Shown here: in pieces, positions 36,411 through 45,526 of the stretch
Position numbering within the stretch: the first letter of the stretch is position 1
Layout of the letters: each line of letters starts with the position of its first letter
Virus record (IMG/VR): IMGVR_UViG_3300045988_167643
DNA from: a virus
Length of the DNA stretch: 64,000 bases
Strand: one strand, 5' to 3'
Program-made: the position numbers and the translations under genes
The notes under the pieces: model-generated
The model's input: the letters and a program-made list of their open reading frames with translations, nothing else
What the model was told of the DNA's origin: nothing
Database searches by the model: none

Positions 36411-36575
36411 ATGAGTAATTTAGTTGTTAAAAAATATGATTGCCAAAAATGTGTAAAAGATAATGGTTGTGTATATAAGAAACGTTATGACAAATTCAAA
36501 AGTAATGTAGAAGGGCGTGAATATGGAAAGACGATAATATTGAAAATAAGTTGTCCATTTTATAAAGAAGTATAA
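36411..36575 (+). CDS. small Cys-containing hypothetical protein (54 aa)
   Basis: AAGGAG SD 9 nt upstream. Confidence 0.5.
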   Translation: MSNLVVKKYDCQKCVKDNGCVYKKRYDKFKSNVEGREYGKTIILKISCPFYKEV

Positions 36576-36669
36576 GTTGAATTTCTGGAATAAGTGATAA
36601 TGAAAAATGGAAGTAGTAATTGTGAGGTGATGATAGATATGATTGATCGAGATTTAAATAAAAACGTTG

Positions 36670-36968
36670 TTTATTACAAAATGTAAATTAATAGGTATAC
36701 AAAACCAATTACCAGATTATCATAAATACCTACTGTTTTGTAACCATGTAAATTAAGAGGTATACAAAACCAGATCCCCTTACACGACTGACACGGCGTT
36801 GTTTTGTAGTCATGTAAATTAAGAGGTATACAAAAATATGGATGGACGATCACAAGTCCTACAGAAGTTTTGTAACCATGTAAATTAAGAGGTATACAAA
36901 ACCAAACGAAAAACTCAAAGTTGATACCAAATGTTTTGTAACCATATAAATTAAGAGGCATACAAAAC
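36670..36968 (+). CRISPR. CRISPR array: 5 x 36-nt repeats, 4 spacers of 29-30 nt
   Basis: Repeats at 36670 (degenerate), 36735, 36801, 36867, 36933; consensus GTTTTGTAACCATGTAAATTAAGAGGTATACAAAAC; spacers unique. Strand inferred only from co-orientation with the nuclease gene. Confidence 0.9.
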
Positions 36969-37150
36969 CTCAAAGTATAGTTTTATACCTCTTATTTTAA
37001 GGCACTTCTATGAAATAGACTAAGAGAAATCTACGTTATAAAAAGATAATATGTTATGGTGTCGCTCTAGCTGTAATTATATCGTTTGTACCTAAACATA
37101 CACTGTGCCGAACATGATTGGTGTAAGTGATACAAACATGTAACTTTTTA
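36969..37150 (+). ncRNA. putative tracrRNA / omega-RNA-like scaffold
   Basis: Anti-repeat GTTTTATACCTCTTATTTTA (36980-36999) complementary to the 3' 22 nt of the repeat; downstream stems (GTTTGTA 37084-90 / TACAAAC 37131-37); T5 run at 37145-49. Ends are guesses. Confidence 0.55.
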
Positions 37151-37212
37151 TAACATTGTCGAAGAGCATGACCAATTTTAAATTGAGATTATATTATAAA
37201 GGAAATAAAAAT

Positions 37213-38952
37213 ATGAATTATATGGATTTTGTATTAATTGTGGATAAAAATAGTAAACCATGTATACCAATAAAAAATGGTAAAGCAGGTTATTTATTAA
37301 GAGAACATAAAGCAGAAATTATAAATCACGAGCCATTAGTTATCAAAAGAACTGATGATTATAATTCGGATTTAGAAAATAGAGATATATTTGAATTAAA
37401 AGTAGATAGTGGATATTTAAATATCGGATTTTCTGTAAGCGATAATGAGCATGAATATATTGCAGGTCAAGTTGAAATGCTAAACGGAATGAGTAATAGA
37501 TTGTTAGAAAGAAAATCTATGCGTAGTTTCAGAAGAAATCGTTTACGTTATAGAAAAAATAAGAACATTGATTATAAAACAGTACATAATCCTACTTATA
37601 AAAATGGAAATGAAGATGGATGGTTTGCACCGTCTATTGTACATAAAATGGAAACGCATATCAGAATCATTGAGCAATTAAAACAATGGGTTCCAATCGA
37701 TAAAGTTATTGTAGAGGTGGCAAATTTTGACATTGCTGCAATGGATGCATATTTAAAGGACGGAACTATTTTAAATGGAAAAGATTATCAAAATGGTGAA
37801 ATGAAAGGATATGAGAATGTTGTATCTTATGTAAGAGCCAGAGATAATTATTCTTGTTACTTTTGCAATAAGAAAAAGAAAAAAGATGGTACACTAAAAG
37901 AGAAACCAAAAAGAATAGAAGTGCACCATAAAATACCAAGATCCTGGGGTGGTACTAATAATCCAGGAAATTTGATTTGCGTATGTCAAGGATGTCATCA
38001 GAAAATACATTCGAATAATAATAACAACAAATATTTTAAAGAATTATTAGAACAAGCTTTACAAGAAAATACATTTAAAGATTCTACATATATGAATATT
38101 GTTAGATGGGAATTATTAAACAGACTTACTGAAAAATATCCAGAGCTTGATATTGAAGCTGAATATGGTTATAACACAAAAATTAATAGAAAAGAAGCAG
38201 GTTTGAGAAAATTCCATTATAATGATGCAGTTTGTATAAAAGAATTTAAGAATATAACTTTATCTAAAAAAGTATTTATTGTCGAACAAAAACGTTGTAA
38301 TGATAGAAAAATGGAAAGTTTTGCAGATGCAAAATATATAGATTCAAGAGATGGTAAAAAGAAAAAAGGAAATGATCTAAAAGTAATTAGGCATAGTACT
38401 AAATCAAAACGCTCTACAAATAAAGAACATATTGATAATGAAAGAATCTTTAGAAAAGAGAAAGTATCTAAGGGTAAAATACAATTTGAGTGTCATTCAT
38501 ATTGCGTAAAACCAGGAGATTTAATATACATAAAAGAAGGTAAACATAAAGGGAAAATTGCAGAAGTTTCTACAATACAGATTGTAGGCGAAAAAATTCC
38601 TAATCCGATAATTGATATTAATGAGATAAATAATAAAAAAATTGATTTCAACAGAGAGTTGAAAAAAAGAAAAACAACTTCTAATATGACTGATTATCAA
38701 AAACGTTTTGCAAAATATCAAATTAGATTTACATATAAAGAATCTGATGCAGATGGACCATCTATAACGCTTACGCAAAAAGAATATGAAAAGCTTAAAG
38801 AGAATAAATCAGATAGAGTAAAAATTATTCGTACCAGACGTGGATTAGTTTGGAGAGAGTACGACAGACTTACATATGAAGCCGAAAATATGGATCAGGA
38901 AGAAAAGAAATTAGAAGTAAAAAATAAGAAACAAGAATTAAAAGCTGCATAA
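37213..38952 (+). CDS. iscB: IscB-like RNA-guided nuclease (PLMP-like, RuvC-I, bridge helix, RuvC-II, HNH, RuvC-III, C-terminal domain), CRISPR-associated
   Basis: FVLIVDKNSKPCIPIKNGKAGYLLREHKAEII; ELKVDSGYLNIGFSV; RKSMRSFRRNRLRYRKNK; KVIVEVANFD; CYFC..EVHHKIPRSWGGTNNPGNLICVCQGCHQKIH; KFHYNDAVCI. ATG 37213 follows AAAGGA; the track start TTG 37156 probably lies inside the RNA scaffold. Confidence 0.85.
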   Translation: MNYMDFVLIVDKNSKPCIPIKNGKAGYLLREHKAEIINHEPLVIKRTDDYNSDLENRDIFELKVDSGYLNIGFSVSDNEHEYIAGQVEMLNGMSNRLLERKSMRSFRRNRLRYRKNKNIDYKTVHNPTYKNGNEDGWFAPSIVHKMETHIRIIEQLKQWVPIDKVIVEVANFDIAAMDAYLKDGTILNGKDYQNGEMKGYENVVSYVRARDNYSCYFCNKKKKKDGTLKEKPKRIEVHHKIPRSWGGTNNPGNLICVCQGCHQKIHSNNNNNKYFKELLEQALQENTFKDSTYMNIVRWELLNRLTEKYPELDIEAEYGYNTKINRKEAGLRKFHYNDAVCIKEFKNITLSKKVFIVEQKRCNDRKMESFADAKYIDSRDGKKKKGNDLKVIRHSTKSKRSTNKEHIDNERIFRKEKVSKGKIQFECHSYCVKPGDLIYIKEGKHKGKIAEVSTIQIVGEKIPNPIIDINEINNKKIDFNRELKKRKTTSNMTDYQKRFAKYQIRFTYKESDADGPSITLTQKEYEKLKENKSDRVKIIRTRRGLVWREYDRLTYEAENMDQEEKKLEVKNKKQELKAA

Positions 38953-38961
38953 AAAAAGGAG

Positions 38962-40785
38962 ATGATCATTATAGACTCAGAAGAGAAAAATACTCAACAG
39001 TCCATTCTGCGCAAGCATTTTGAGATGCTATATCCGGATAAACTAAAGGATGATGAATGGATAAGACTGGTACGGATAAATAAAATAAGCAATGAAACTT
39101 TTGTCGATTACATAAAAACTTATGATGAATATTACAATTATATTCAAACTTATAAATGGAATTTTGATTTATATAATCAACTTGCAACAAATATTGGACG
39201 TGATAAAGGAACAGAAAGTCAACAGAGAACAAGAAGAGTTTTGTTCCTGGATTTTGATCAGAAAGATTACGAACGATTATCTGGGGCAAAAGCATTTACA
39301 GGCTTCATAAAAAGTAAAATAAAAAAATTGTTTCTACATGCATGTATAAATTCAGGACATGGGTATCACTATTATATATGTATTGATGAAAAAGCTAATA
39401 ATGCAAAAGAAGTTGTAGAGCTTAATAAAACACTTGCAGATATCTTTAGAGCAGATCTTAAGGCAACATTATCAACGCAAATCGCGCGAATTCCATGCTC
39501 TTTTAATCACAAAACAGAAGATGGAGAATATGACTATCAAGATCCAGGTAAGTGGGAATATGTGAGAGTTGTCAATAATGCATATAAAAATGGACCACAG
39601 TATAGAGCATATCCATTATCTGAAATTAGAAGTTACATATCAGATTATTACAAAAATCTGGATAAAGAGGTAAATATTTTTGCCCTGAAAGAATGGAAAG
39701 AAGCGAAAAGCGGAAAAGAATTTAATTATTTCTGTATTGAGCGTGTTAAACATGAAGGAGCGGTTAAGGGACAGCGTAACTTCTGGCATGGTCGAATTGT
39801 TAAAAGTATGCAGAAACAGGGTTATAGTGAGCAAGAAATTTTTGCGGCATGTAAAGAATATAATGCAGCCTGTATTCCACCAAAATCTGATAGTGTAATT
39901 TTAGATGACACGGCAAGATTTTTGAAAAAGAAATATAACTTAACAGGATGTTATGGCGCTTTTCCAGAAAATGATGAAAGACATTGGTGGGTCGCTATGC
40001 AGTGTGATGAAGCAAAATGTAAGACTTTTAATTGTGGGCTTTGTATAACGGAAATGGATACCGATGAAAAACACAATCCACAAAGGGCTGCTGGAGCAAA
40101 AATAAATAAGAAGATTTTGAAGAATAGTACCATTAGAAAGATGACAGGAAACGATTATTTGGTCATAACTCTTATTGATGTTTATGAAGTATTATACGGA
40201 AGAAAAGGGTTTAGAGTAAGAGATTTAATTGACAAATTAAAATCAAAATATGCTAAGAGAAGATGTATTGGAGATAAAACGTTAAAGCCTCTTTTACTTA
40301 ATTTACAAGAAAAGAAATGGATTCAGATTGTCGAAGATAAAAAGAAACCAGGAGTATTTCTTGATTCCAGACTTGTACTGAACAGAAGATTAAAAGAAAT
40401 CCAGCAAGGCTATATTGAATTTTATTTTAATATAGCGAGAGCATTAATTGATGGTCGAATTGTTGCTAATGAATATTTAGTCTACATTACATTACTAAGA
40501 AATCTTGATAACGGAAGACCTGTTACATATGATGAACTAGCTTACGATTTAGATTTTTCGAGACAAAATGTTGCTAAGTATATTAAAAATTTGGAAGATG
40601 CAGGATGTATTTTTATCAGTAAAGGAACAACCGATAAAGGATTTGAATGTAATAAATATCGTGTAACTAATCCTCAATTATTTGACGAGATTGATAGAAA
40701 GAGAAGAAAAGAATTTGAGAAAGCATCAGTTACTCTTGCAGATGAACAGAGTAATGAGCTTAGTGAAGCAATATTAATAGCGTAG
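38962..40785 (+). CDS. replication initiator: AEP primase-polymerase domain + PriCT-like + C-terminal winged-helix
   Basis: AEP motifs VLFLDFDQ (DxD), NSGHGYHYY (sGxGxH), IARIPCSFNHK; then FWHGRIVKSMQKQGYSEQEIFAACKEYN; C-terminal wHTH YDELAYDLDFSRQNVAKYIKNLEDAGCIF. Start codon uncertain (SD abuts the ATG). Confidence 0.7.
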   Translation: MIIIDSEEKNTQQSILRKHFEMLYPDKLKDDEWIRLVRINKISNETFVDYIKTYDEYYNYIQTYKWNFDLYNQLATNIGRDKGTESQQRTRRVLFLDFDQKDYERLSGAKAFTGFIKSKIKKLFLHACINSGHGYHYYICIDEKANNAKEVVELNKTLADIFRADLKATLSTQIARIPCSFNHKTEDGEYDYQDPGKWEYVRVVNNAYKNGPQYRAYPLSEIRSYISDYYKNLDKEVNIFALKEWKEAKSGKEFNYFCIERVKHEGAVKGQRNFWHGRIVKSMQKQGYSEQEIFAACKEYNAACIPPKSDSVILDDTARFLKKKYNLTGCYGAFPENDERHWWVAMQCDEAKCKTFNCGLCITEMDTDEKHNPQRAAGAKINKKILKNSTIRKMTGNDYLVITLIDVYEVLYGRKGFRVRDLIDKLKSKYAKRRCIGDKTLKPLLLNLQEKKWIQIVEDKKKPGVFLDSRLVLNRRLKEIQQGYIEFYFNIARALIDGRIVANEYLVYITLLRNLDNGRPVTYDELAYDLDFSRQNVAKYIKNLEDAGCIFISKGTTDKGFECNKYRVTNPQLFDEIDRKRRKEFEKASVTLADEQSNELSEAILIA

Positions 40786-44428: not shown

Positions 44429-45526
44429 ATGAAAGACATTAAGATTGTGGCTGGAGCAAACTGGGGAGACGAAGGAAAAGGACTAATGACTGATTACTTT
44501 TCACAGAAACCTAATAGTATTGTAGTATGTTCTAATGGTGGAAGTCAAAGAGGACATACTGTGGTAACACCGGACGGAATCAGACATGTCTTTCATCATT
44601 TTGGTTCTGGAACTTTTAATGGTGCTGCTACATATTTACCAAAAGAATTTATTGTAAATCCACTTATTTTTGCTCAAGAATATAAAGAACTGATAAATAA
44701 GAGAATTATTCCTAATATTTATGTTCATGGAGATTGTATGGTTTCGACTCCGTATGATATGATGGCAAACCAGGTCATCGAAGAGAGTCGTGGAAAACAA
44801 AAGCATGGTAGTTGTGGATTTGGAATTTTTGAAACCATTAAGAGATATAAAAATGGTATAACCGATTTTGATAAAGCAAAGGACTATTATCTTGAAAAAT
44901 TTGAACGAGATAAAATTCTACTATCAGACGACTGGAAAAGAATATTTAATGATCCAGGAATAAATGATCATTTTATAGAAGATTTGGATTTTATGAATGA
45001 TCACATTAAATCAATTAGAGATGAAAGCTTTCTAAATATGTTTGACCATATTATTTTTGAAGCTGCTCAAGGACTACTACTCGATCAGAATAATCTAAAA
45101 TATTTCCCATATCTTACACCATCTAATACAGGTCTGAAAAATCCTAAAAAAATTATTGAAAGAATTGATTGGTATGATGAATTAAATATAGAAGTATGTT
45201 ATGTGACACGTACATATTTAACGAGACATGGTGTCGGTCCGTTTCCAACAGAGTGTGATAAAGACGAAATTAATTCTGAAATGCACGATAATACAAATGT
45301 ACCTAATCCTCATCAGGATACTTTACGTTACGGAAAGTTAGATTTAAATGAGTTATATCAAAGAGTGATGGAAGATGTTGGAAATTTTAAATGTAAAAAA
45401 TCTATTGCCATTACACACTGTAATGAATTTAGAATGGATGAAGATAAGTTTGAGAAGTTATTTTTAGGATGGAATATTTATAAATCAGATGGTGAAACAC
45501 ATAATAGCATAAAGGAGACAAAATAA
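44429..45526 (+). CDS. divergent adenylosuccinate synthetase (PurA)-like protein
   Basis: NWGDEGKG P-loop, QRGHTV, FEAAQGLLLD, TRTYLTRHGVGPFPTE all present; only 365 aa, and the GxTTGRxRRxGW segment is replaced by NVPNPHQDTLRYGKL. Confidence 0.7.
   Translation: MKDIKIVAGANWGDEGKGLMTDYFSQKPNSIVVCSNGGSQRGHTVVTPDGIRHVFHHFGSGTFNGAATYLPKEFIVNPLIFAQEYKELINKRIIPNIYVHGDCMVSTPYDMMANQVIEESRGKQKHGSCGFGIFETIKRYKNGITDFDKAKDYYLEKFERDKILLSDDWKRIFNDPGINDHFIEDLDFMNDHIKSIRDESFLNMFDHIIFEAAQGLLLDQNNLKYFPYLTPSNTGLKNPKKIIERIDWYDELNIEVCYVTRTYLTRHGVGPFPTECDKDEINSEMHDNTNVPNPHQDTLRYGKLDLNELYQRVMEDVGNFKCKKSIAITHCNEFRMDEDKFEKLFLGWNIYKSDGETHNSIKETK

Follow-up and report, generated by a model that had tools for sequence, protein, structure and literature searches.

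A CRISPR array with a predicted IscB-family nuclease and guide RNA scaffold on a human-gut jumbo phage

Results and Discussion

The locus and its carrier

A CRISPR array and a gene for a predicted IscB-family nuclease lie together on the IMG/VR virus record IMGVR_UViG_3300045988_167643. A stretch of 64,000 nucleotides (nt) of this record, here called the window, was analysed. The carrier is a jumbo phage of about 216 kb from the human gut. The exact IscB protein and the same four spacers are also present on a 216,510-bp human-gut contig (ERZ19653903 k119_16842), and iscB genes with 98–100% identity were found on IMG/VR viral contigs of 88–222 kb. The homolog search yielded an IscB clade of about 40 protein clusters, whose viral contigs in IMG/VR reach about 220 kb. 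Distant clade members (47–57% identity) were found in further large genomes of phage-like character, from gut and rumen, with genes for DNA ligase, RNA ligases, PARP, thymidylate synthase and Thg1. An initial annotation of the window had called the element a phage or phage-plasmid. The viral contigs in IMG/VR bear out the viral nature; the phage-plasmid part found no specific support. The protein is annotated as 'hypothetical' in every public source checked, and no similar annotated record of the locus was found among the phage and plasmid collections searched. Related loci are given as L numbers where they have to be told apart.

The array comprises five 36-nt repeats and four unique spacers (36670–36968) with a period of 65–66 nt. 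Copies 1 to 5 differ from the repeat consensus GTTTTGTAACCATGTAAATTAAGAGGTATACAAAAC at 8, 0, 3, 0 and 2 positions, respectively. The initial annotation had described this arrangement accurately, including the spacer length of 29–30 nt, the degenerate first copy and the substitutions in copies 3 and 5.

36670–36705, + strand: repeat 1, degenerate with 8/36 mismatches, of which seven fall in the 5′ third; trailer (old) end
36706–36734, + strand: spacer 1, 29 nt, oldest; common to L011, L040 and L054 with one mismatch
36735–36770, + strand: repeat 2, identical to the consensus GTTTTGTAACCATGTAAATTAAGAGGTATACAAAAC
36771–36800, + strand: spacer 2, 30 nt, 57% GC (guanine plus cytosine); no match in the searches made
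36801–36836, + strand: repeat 3, 3 substitutions
36837–36866, + strand: spacer 3, 30 nt; no match in the searches made
36867–36902, + strand: repeat 4, identical to the consensus
36903–36932, + strand: spacer 4, 30 nt, newest by position; predicted guide, cis-linked to the scaffold
36933–36968, + strand: repeat 5, 2 substitutions; positions ~15–36 pair with the anti-repeat

Regular direct repeats, unique spacers and polar variation among relatives make this a bona fide CRISPR array. A search of both strands of the 64 kb with up to 10 mismatches found no repeat copy outside the array; the extra matches came from three repeats of the array itself, which are partly palindromic and match themselves on the reverse strand. 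In most lineages, the iscB-distal repeat is degenerate at its 5′ part. A minus-strand open reading frame (ORF) of 99 amino acids (aa) at 36674–36973 was rejected as a repeat artefact; its translation repeats CIPLNLHGYKT.

The nuclease

Downstream of the array and on the same strand lies the predicted nuclease gene.

37213–38952, + strand: iscB, 579 aa, 243 nt past the last repeat

The distance of 243 nt agrees with the approximately 245 nt estimated initially. ATG 37213 was taken as the start codon, as in homologs; the TTG at 37156, which opens a 598-aa ORF, is the mechanical maximum. The domain order is PLMP, RuvC-I, bridge helix, an 11-aa clade-specific insert, RuvC-II, HNH, RuvC-III and an enlarged C-terminal domain, the region interacting with the target-adjacent motif (TAM). 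The order from PLMP to RuvC-III, followed by a C-terminal region, had been read correctly before.

Profile searches placed the protein among the IscBs. The NCBIfam equivalog guided_IscB (NF040563) matched residues 7–342 with 250.2 bits at a cutoff of 175, and Pfam matches were RRXRR (PF14239, 3e-32) and HNH (PF01844). The Cas9 and Cas9d models of NCBIfam did not match the 579-aa protein. The top sequence matches in the PDB were all IscBs (HfmIscB with 1e-24, OgeuIscB and TbaIscB), with type II-D Cas9 at 5e-6. An AlphaFold2 model built from 43 homologs reached a predicted local distance difference test score (pLDDT) of 76 and a predicted template modelling score (pTM) of 0.67. Foldseek matched it best to complexes of IscB, ωRNA and DNA (8csz with 4.6e-23, 9liq, 9nvu and 9k30; 5e-23 to 4e-16), followed by IsrB, then II-D Cas9 with 2e-9 and other Cas9s with 7e-6 or higher. 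BFVD held no full-length viral IscB-like model, only HNH-domain matches.

The catalytic residues, which were checked for inactivation, are all intact: RuvC D65, E168, H335 and D338 and HNH H238/H239, N253 and H262 are invariant in the 43-sequence alignment that includes the window protein. About 50 residues separate the bridge helix (93–112) from RuvC-II (164–169). This space holds only the 11-residue insert and no recognition (REC) lobe. The insert follows the bridge helix, at the site of the REC lobe insertion in Cas9. In comparison to classical IscBs of about 450 aa, the C-terminal region is expanded, and the sub-lineage of the window has a further insert of about 30 residues there. By sequence profile and structural model, and in agreement with the initial annotation, the protein is predicted to be an IscB-family RuvC-HNH nuclease with an intact active site and not a Cas9.

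The RNA between array and gene

The gap of 243 nt between array and iscB holds a short junction, an anti-repeat and a structured scaffold. The anti-repeat (36976–37003) and the scaffold (to ~37190) had gone unnoticed in the initial annotation.

36969–36975, no strand assigned: junction CTCAAAG, 7 nt, loop of the repeat:anti-repeat hairpin
36976–37003, + strand: anti-repeat, similar to a trans-activating CRISPR RNA (tracrRNA), its partner is the 3′ two-thirds of the repeat, with covariation across lineages
36981–37190, + strand: ωRNA-like scaffold, with HEARO match and covariation
37035-45/37144-54, 37054-60/37070-76, 37084-92/37129-37, 37096-102/37122-28 and 37173-76/37182-85: five covarying helices of the scaffold

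The Rfam family HEARO (RF02033) matched positions 36981–37172 on the + strand over the full model (1–211) with 56.4 bits and an E value of 1e-10. The scaffold is a divergent homolog of the IscB ωRNA and not a HEARO member at the curated threshold. Its structure was derived from an alignment of this region from 12 diverged relatives. RNAalifold predicted 36 pairs, 21 of them with compensatory changes. Within these pairs, 97.4% of the alignment cells were paired, versus 30–46% when the partners were slid by 1–3 columns, and none of 500 shuffles reached the observed covariation. G:U pairs are invariant or dominant at several positions. On the opposite strand they would become C:A mismatches; hence, the functional RNA is read from the + strand. 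The z-scores of single-sequence folding were insignificant for both strands, so the strand was assigned from covariation and G:U pairs.

The repeat:anti-repeat hairpin, with 12–22 bp, was predicted in 11 of the 12 lineages folded and has a different sequence in each. In L018, with a diverged anti-repeat, it was not predicted. The most conserved unpaired part is the junction: T38, C39, A40 and A41 are invariant in the 12 lineages and C37 and A42 are conserved in at least 90%. Pairing of the junction CCUC with the repeat GAGG was considered as the cause of this conservation and rejected; the partner is absent in several lineages (L014, L051). Since the anti-repeat pairs with the repeat and leads into the scaffold, a natural single-guide RNA is predicted that is made up of the last spacer and repeat, the junction loop, the anti-repeat and the scaffold.

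Array, junction, anti-repeat, scaffold and iscB were together in every related locus examined, which comprised at least 12 diverged lineages, and the content of spacers varied. This survey does not fit the possibility, raised with the initial annotation, of a generic intergenic repeat that occurs without the nuclease.

An ordinary IS200/IS605 element of the OMEGA type (for obligate mobile element-guided activity) beside an unrelated repeat block would account for an IscB protein and a HEARO-like scaffold, but this explanation is effectively refuted. It accounts for neither the pairing of the repeat with the 5′ end of the scaffold nor the regular repeats with unique spacers that vary between strains. 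A Pfam scan of the 118 window ORFs of at least 70 aa (E ≤ 1e-5), which found 23 families, gave no match to the Y1 transposase (Y1_Tnp); no specific search for hairpins at insertion sequence (IS) ends was made. The closest IscBs outside the clade have 36–41% identity and 433–455 aa and lie in ordinary chromosomal neighbourhoods. These relatives differ from the phage locus in that each has a canonical HEARO RNA that scores above the cutoff (133 and 86 bits) and lacks both an array and a CTCAAA junction.

Spacer 4 contains AAAAACTCAAAGT, which is nearly identical to the string AAAACCTCAAAGT of repeat end plus junction at 36964–36976. The likeness could be a coincidence, a spacer from the junction of a rival or the trace of an aberrant integration.

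Spacer gain and a leader-type motif

Across different human-gut samples there are dozens of near-identical phages whose only differences lie in the iscB-proximal spacers. Phages with the same IscB protein have the arrays a-b-c-d-e, a-b-c-f-g, a-b-h and a-f-g, and every gain is at the iscB-proximal end. The window array shares only the iscB-distal spacer with L011, L040 and L054, and all their other spacers differ. In other lineages, an array equals that of a relative plus one or two iscB-proximal spacers. In 15 pairs of arrays sharing at least one spacer, which are not phylogenetically independent, 14 pairs had the distal spacer in common and 2 the proximal one. Of the private spacers, 55 were proximal, 3 distal and 2 internal. 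To explain the differences, three lineages must have undergone at least nine separate terminal gains. The degenerate repeat is at the distal end, as expected for a trailer. The array comparisons indicate that the arrays are live and gain spacers with polarity at the iscB-proximal end. The term 'adaptation-free', used in the initial annotation, is misleading in view of the polarised spacer gain in sister phages.

Spacers are exactly 30 nt long in 42 of 55 cases. Their GC content averages 41% versus 32% for the phages (p = 1.6e-12). Two arrays (L036, L015) hold pairs of similar spacers. The pair in L036 (9380–9465) reads in frame as MYPADEVQM and MYPADEAEM. A third allele, MYPADEVPAKK, is encoded in a large ORF (L061 237–256; phrog_26822/17422) of an unrelated viral contig of 59.8 kb, IMGVR_UViG_3300035499_000364. 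Such variant pairs are characteristic of a phage gene that diverges and is sampled repeatedly.

The minus strand of repeat end and junction, AAAAC|CTCAAA(T), reads (A)TTTGAG|GTTTT; the junction CTCAAAG of the window gives CTTTGAG|G. ATTTGAG/GTTT is the leader-repeat junction of type II-A systems, present in 87 of 167 II-A loci (Van Orden et al., PMC5382924), and the leader-repeat junction is essential for adaptation (Wei et al., as cited in PMC5382924). In the phage loci, the leader-type motif sits exactly where new spacers appear. The repeat has inverted ends (GTTTT...AAAAC), so an integrase would see a canonical junction.

A scan of GTDB for the repeat family retrieved a Planococcus cas9-cas1-cas2 locus and the array of one Ruminococcus metagenome-assembled genome (MAG), and nothing else. 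The Planococcus array begins with ...AATTTGAG|GTTTTAGACC and ends in degenerate repeats. In this locus of Planococcus sp. ISL-109, a fourth gene in the csn2 position (L058 1619–2485) had no NCBIfam match and may be a divergent Csn2. Phage repeats match the Planococcus type II repeat at 24–29 of 36 positions in sense and at 19–24 of 36 in reverse orientation, with sense being better in all 10 lineages tested. The likeness in sense orientation suggests that the guide is transcribed in the normal CRISPR RNA (crRNA) sense and that the leader-type motif is inverted at the 3′ end.

Recombination and deletion among co-circulating arrays would be another source of spacer differences, with the junction as an RNA element, either a hairpin loop or a 5′ remnant of an ωRNA. 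Internal deletions and collapse do occur (a-f-g versus a-b-c-f-g; the single-repeat arrays of L019 and L055), and the HEARO start GUCAA resembles CUCAA. But reshuffling makes no private spacers, whereas private spacers lie 55 to 3 on the two sides and three lineages had the terminal gains described above. Variant spacer pairs from alleles of one gene are typical of repeated acquisition. With the II-A motif, the junction agrees over 6–7 nt including GAG|G, whereas with HEARO it agrees over only 4 nt and lacks the P1 partner. This explanation is considered improbable.

The lineage C arrays of L019 and L055 have shrunk to one repeat, which is fused to the upstream flank. L022 has lost the end of the upstream ORF through a deletion. 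The locus readily undergoes rearrangement, and an ωRNA-like state with one guide occurs naturally.

The array might instead be a viral mini-array serving the Cas9 of the host, next to an IscB that uses a fixed ωRNA. Repeats of the II-A family in crRNA sense, together with the II-A-type leader motif, would suit a host Cas9, and viral mini-arrays exploiting host effectors are known, among them those of archaeal viruses. Against a mere neighbourhood of array and nuclease, the anti-repeat is fused to the HEARO-like scaffold in front of iscB and covaries with the repeat in 11 of 12 lineages, array and iscB were not found apart in any related locus, and the last spacer and repeat occupy the position of the guide in a classical ωRNA. 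Nor did the GTDB species representatives include a host with an identical repeat. We regard such separate functions as very unlikely; a use of the array by both IscB and a host Cas9 is possible.

Proposed mechanism and source of spacers

The locus is quite probably a CRISPR-associated IscB (CasIscB) system of a human-gut jumbo phage, with RNA-guided cutting and with spacers from a type II-A Cas1-Cas2 acting in trans. Transcription of the + strand would run through array and scaffold. The terminal spacer-repeat would fold onto the anti-repeat, and the newest spacer, last repeat and scaffold would become a single-guide RNA. IscB would bind this RNA and cut complementary double-stranded DNA beside a TAM with its RuvC and HNH domains. 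Older spacers would be usable only via repeat:anti-repeat pairing in trans or via RNA processing. The conserved junction, read as a II-A leader-anchoring motif on the opposite strand, would direct integration, and the spacers would be inserted by a Cas1-Cas2 acting in trans, whose most likely source is a type II-A host. Each new spacer would land in the position that is cis-linked to the scaffold.

Spacers are probably acquired in trans because the 64 kb lack cas1, cas2, cas4 and csn2 and the arrays nevertheless gain spacers. The 36-nt repeats and 30-nt spacers of the II-A family make a type II-A host the likely source. The initial annotation had recognised no cas1, cas2, cas4, csn2 or TnpA gene in the window, and the Pfam scan agreed: Cas1, Cas2, Cas4, Csn2 and Y1 transposase had no match among the 118 ORFs. 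Planococcus type II Cas1 and Cas2 as tblastn queries had no match in 0.8 Mb of window and related loci. The Cas screen rests on Pfam; the PADLOC summary was unusable for it, being dominated by methyltransferase models. An experimental precedent for borrowing is the plasmid-borne type IV-A3, which uses a host I-E system's machinery for adaptation (2024 mobile-element CRISPR review).

The polarised gain requires an integrase from somewhere, and the phage could encode its own adaptation module in the approximately 150 kb outside the window, which would make the CRISPR system self-sufficient. The window covers 64 of about 216 kb, and some jumbo phages have complete CRISPR systems, according to a review. 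Adaptation genes normally adjoin the array, but none was found within 36 kb upstream or 25 kb downstream, nor within ±10 kb of the locus in about a dozen related phages. Repeats, spacer length and junction motif match the cellular type II-A family instead. A module of the phage is thus unlikely, though less so than the array reshuffling and the host-Cas9 mini-array discussed above.

Several observations speak against a CasIscB system supplied in trans. The HEARO score is below the Rfam gathering cutoff (56 versus 83), with no match at the gathering threshold, and scans for promoter and terminator consensus sequences were uninformative. The scan for Cas genes covered 64 of about 216 kb, and a phage Cas1-Cas2 elsewhere is possible. 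No identical repeat was found in the GTDB species representatives, the best being 29–30 of 36 positions in Planococcus and the Ruminococcus MAG. The leader motif is inverted relative to the canonical orientation of the repeat. As a consequence, the choice of spacers by the protospacer-adjacent motif (PAM) of a II-A Cas9 would not pre-select the TAM of IscB. Classical ωRNAs start with GUCAA, which resembles the junction, and its conservation may have a cause at the RNA level. Finally, no protospacers for about 60 spacers were found in GenBank phages, PLSDB plasmids or related loci; the BLAST sets were 8 and then about 51 spacers for GenBank phages and 8 and then about 41 for PLSDB plasmids.

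The repeat scan gave only Planococcus and the Ruminococcus MAG and thus did not identify the phage host. A protein query of the GTDB genomes found no relative.

A more specific form of trans-supply is tentative and somewhat doubtful. The phage IscB might parasitise the Cas1-Cas2(-Csn2) of a II-A host via the inverted motif, with priority for the newest spacer. The system might then be a living intermediate on the way from an ωRNA to crRNA plus tracrRNA, and from IscB to Cas9.

Targets and possible role

In IMG/VR, five exact-pattern scans made from six spacers retrieved only the arrays themselves and one partial allele match of 21/30. There was no evidence of self-targeting: spacer matches in the window or in approximately 0.7–0.8 Mb of related loci did not exceed chance. 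Spacer 'a' of L012, the oldest spacer in the lineage of the window, matches the 3′ end of iscB in L013 (11420–11442) over 23 nt with 2 mismatches. With an E value of 0.011, this match is not significant across 55 queries and was not accepted as a target. If true, one phage would target the nuclease gene of a rival.

The likely role, by analogy and from the GC offset of the spacers, would be an attack on foreign DNA with a GC content above that of the phage, for example the DNA of rival phages, other mobile elements or the host.

Other genes of the window

The window has a GC content of 31–32%, and all chosen ORFs are on the + strand. The 118 selected non-overlapping + strand ORFs cover 85% of the window (1–64000). 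The GC skew is positive across the whole window (+0.20 to +0.38) and never switches. No tRNA genes were found in the 64 kb, and no virion genes were recognised by Pfam (E ≤ 1e-5). PHROG and Pfam matches include an integrase, a ParB-like protein, a PemK toxin, DNA methyltransferases, YopX and a Clp-type protease.

The gene next to iscB is not constant.

38962–40785, + strand: 607-aa ORF, starts 9 nt past iscB; weak similarity to a primase/polymerase, DnaD-like or replication-initiator winged helix-turn-helix protein

This ORF is present in L001, L003 and L062, and other genes take its place in L004–L009 and L066–L075. Even phages with an IscB in the same 90% cluster have a different gene 3′ of iscB. 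The ORF is a neighbour and not part of a conserved module. The initial annotation had placed the nuclease next to a Rep gene and origin; this link is weak, with an only weakly primase- or initiator-like ORF that is replaced in close relatives.

On the other side, just 5′ of the array, a Cys-rich ORF of 54 aa (36411–36575) is kept in sister phages and has a stop codon in L011. Lineage A and L003 have conserved the stretch ~36590–36660 between this ORF and the array, a candidate promoter region of the array.

A PurZ-like adenylosuccinate synthetase is encoded at 44429–45526 (phrog_1211, 1.9e-69; Pfam Adenylsucc_synt) and is kept a few kb 3′ of iscB in L001, L003, L008, L009 and L034. It may indicate DNA with 2-aminoadenine (Z-base), which may be relevant to restriction and nuclease sensitivity. 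A fusion of polynucleotide kinase, phosphatase and RNA ligase with 732 aa (51523–53721; phrog_8238, 3e-223) is of the RNA-repair type that phages deploy against tRNA-cleaving defences of the host. Separate RNA ligase genes occur near iscB in related phages (L036).

Relation to known systems

CRISPR-associated IscBs were reportedly seen by Altae-Tran et al. in their 2021 Science study. As a category they are already known, and in this respect the initial annotation, which regarded a CRISPR-linked IscB as rarely reported, was overstated. 'CasIscBs' is an established term (PMC13180657). One of them, DelIscB, is described in excerpts of its report (PMC12660989) as having an upstream non-coding RNA (ncRNA) with spacers, repeats, anti-repeat and an ωRNA-like scaffold. 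According to the same excerpts, DelIscB cleaves DNA with a 16-nt guide and an NAC TAM, was engineered as a genome editor, and the processing and use of multiple spacers are stated to be unresolved; the excerpts do not take up how spacers are acquired. Not described in the literature searched are a phage-borne CasIscB clade, comparative evidence of polarised spacer acquisition in CasIscB arrays and the inverted II-A leader motif at a repeat/anti-repeat junction. A 2024 review of CRISPR in mobile elements mentions IscB 0 times.

As far as the excerpts describe DelIscB and CasIscBs, the phage system shares with them an IscB-family effector without REC lobe, a co-oriented array and an ncRNA of repeat, anti-repeat and scaffold in front of the ORF. 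In contrast to these descriptions, the clade is phage-borne, on contigs of about 190–220 kb, with II-A family repeats and 30-nt spacers. It also differs by the inverted II-A leader motif and the polarised spacer turnover, and the phage IscB by the 11-aa insert after the bridge helix and the enlarged C-terminal domain.

With the OMEGA IscBs (OgeuIscB, PDB 7xht/8csz), the phage system has in common the protein family, the fold, the HEARO homology and a guide 5′ of the scaffold, and the RNA is likewise encoded upstream of the gene on the same strand. Unlike in OMEGA systems, there is no TnpA or IS context, and the array and the repeat:anti-repeat duplex replace the single fixed guide. The HEARO score of the phage locus is 56 bits (cutoff 83), compared to 86–133 bits in the nearest non-CRISPR relatives.

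Type II-A systems have similar 36-nt repeats (GTTTT...AAAAC), 30-nt spacers, the junction (A)TTTGAG|GTTTT and repeat:anti-repeat pairing, and in both cases the newest spacers adjoin the leader or leader-type motif. But the phage effector is an IscB and not a Cas9, and the window lacks cas1, cas2 and csn2. In the phage array, the leader-type motif lies inverted at the 3′ end, where it is fused to the anti-repeat, and the predicted transcription of the guide runs towards the leader and not away from it. Type II-D (Cas9d) is similar as a compact HNH-RuvC effector near the boundary of IscB and Cas9. The 2021 study of Altae-Tran et al. reportedly also includes II-D systems that lack associated adaptation genes and have large structured guide RNAs. 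Cas9d differs by its REC lobe and its size of approximately 650–1000 aa, and its Foldseek match was 2e-9 versus 5e-23 for IscB.

Virus mini-arrays, the CRISPR of jumbo phages without adaptation module and type IV-A3 also have a short array and no integrase of their own (PMC6858448; PMC11656645). As in these systems, the array resembles a cellular repeat family and a role in conflicts between mobile elements is presumed. Here, the phage brings its own effector, an IscB, and no spacer match to related viruses was found.

CRISPR-associated IscBs are treated as snapshots of a transposon nuclease becoming Cas9. The phage clade adds natural-history data on the use of multiple spacers and the origin of spacers in CasIscBs, and the coincidence of the integration end with the II-A leader motif makes trans-adaptation by an IscB system directly testable. 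IscB thereby joins the short list of phage-carried CRISPR effectors. The clade supplies compact nucleases of 515–580 aa, predicted natural single-guide RNAs and an unusual enlarged domain on the TAM side.

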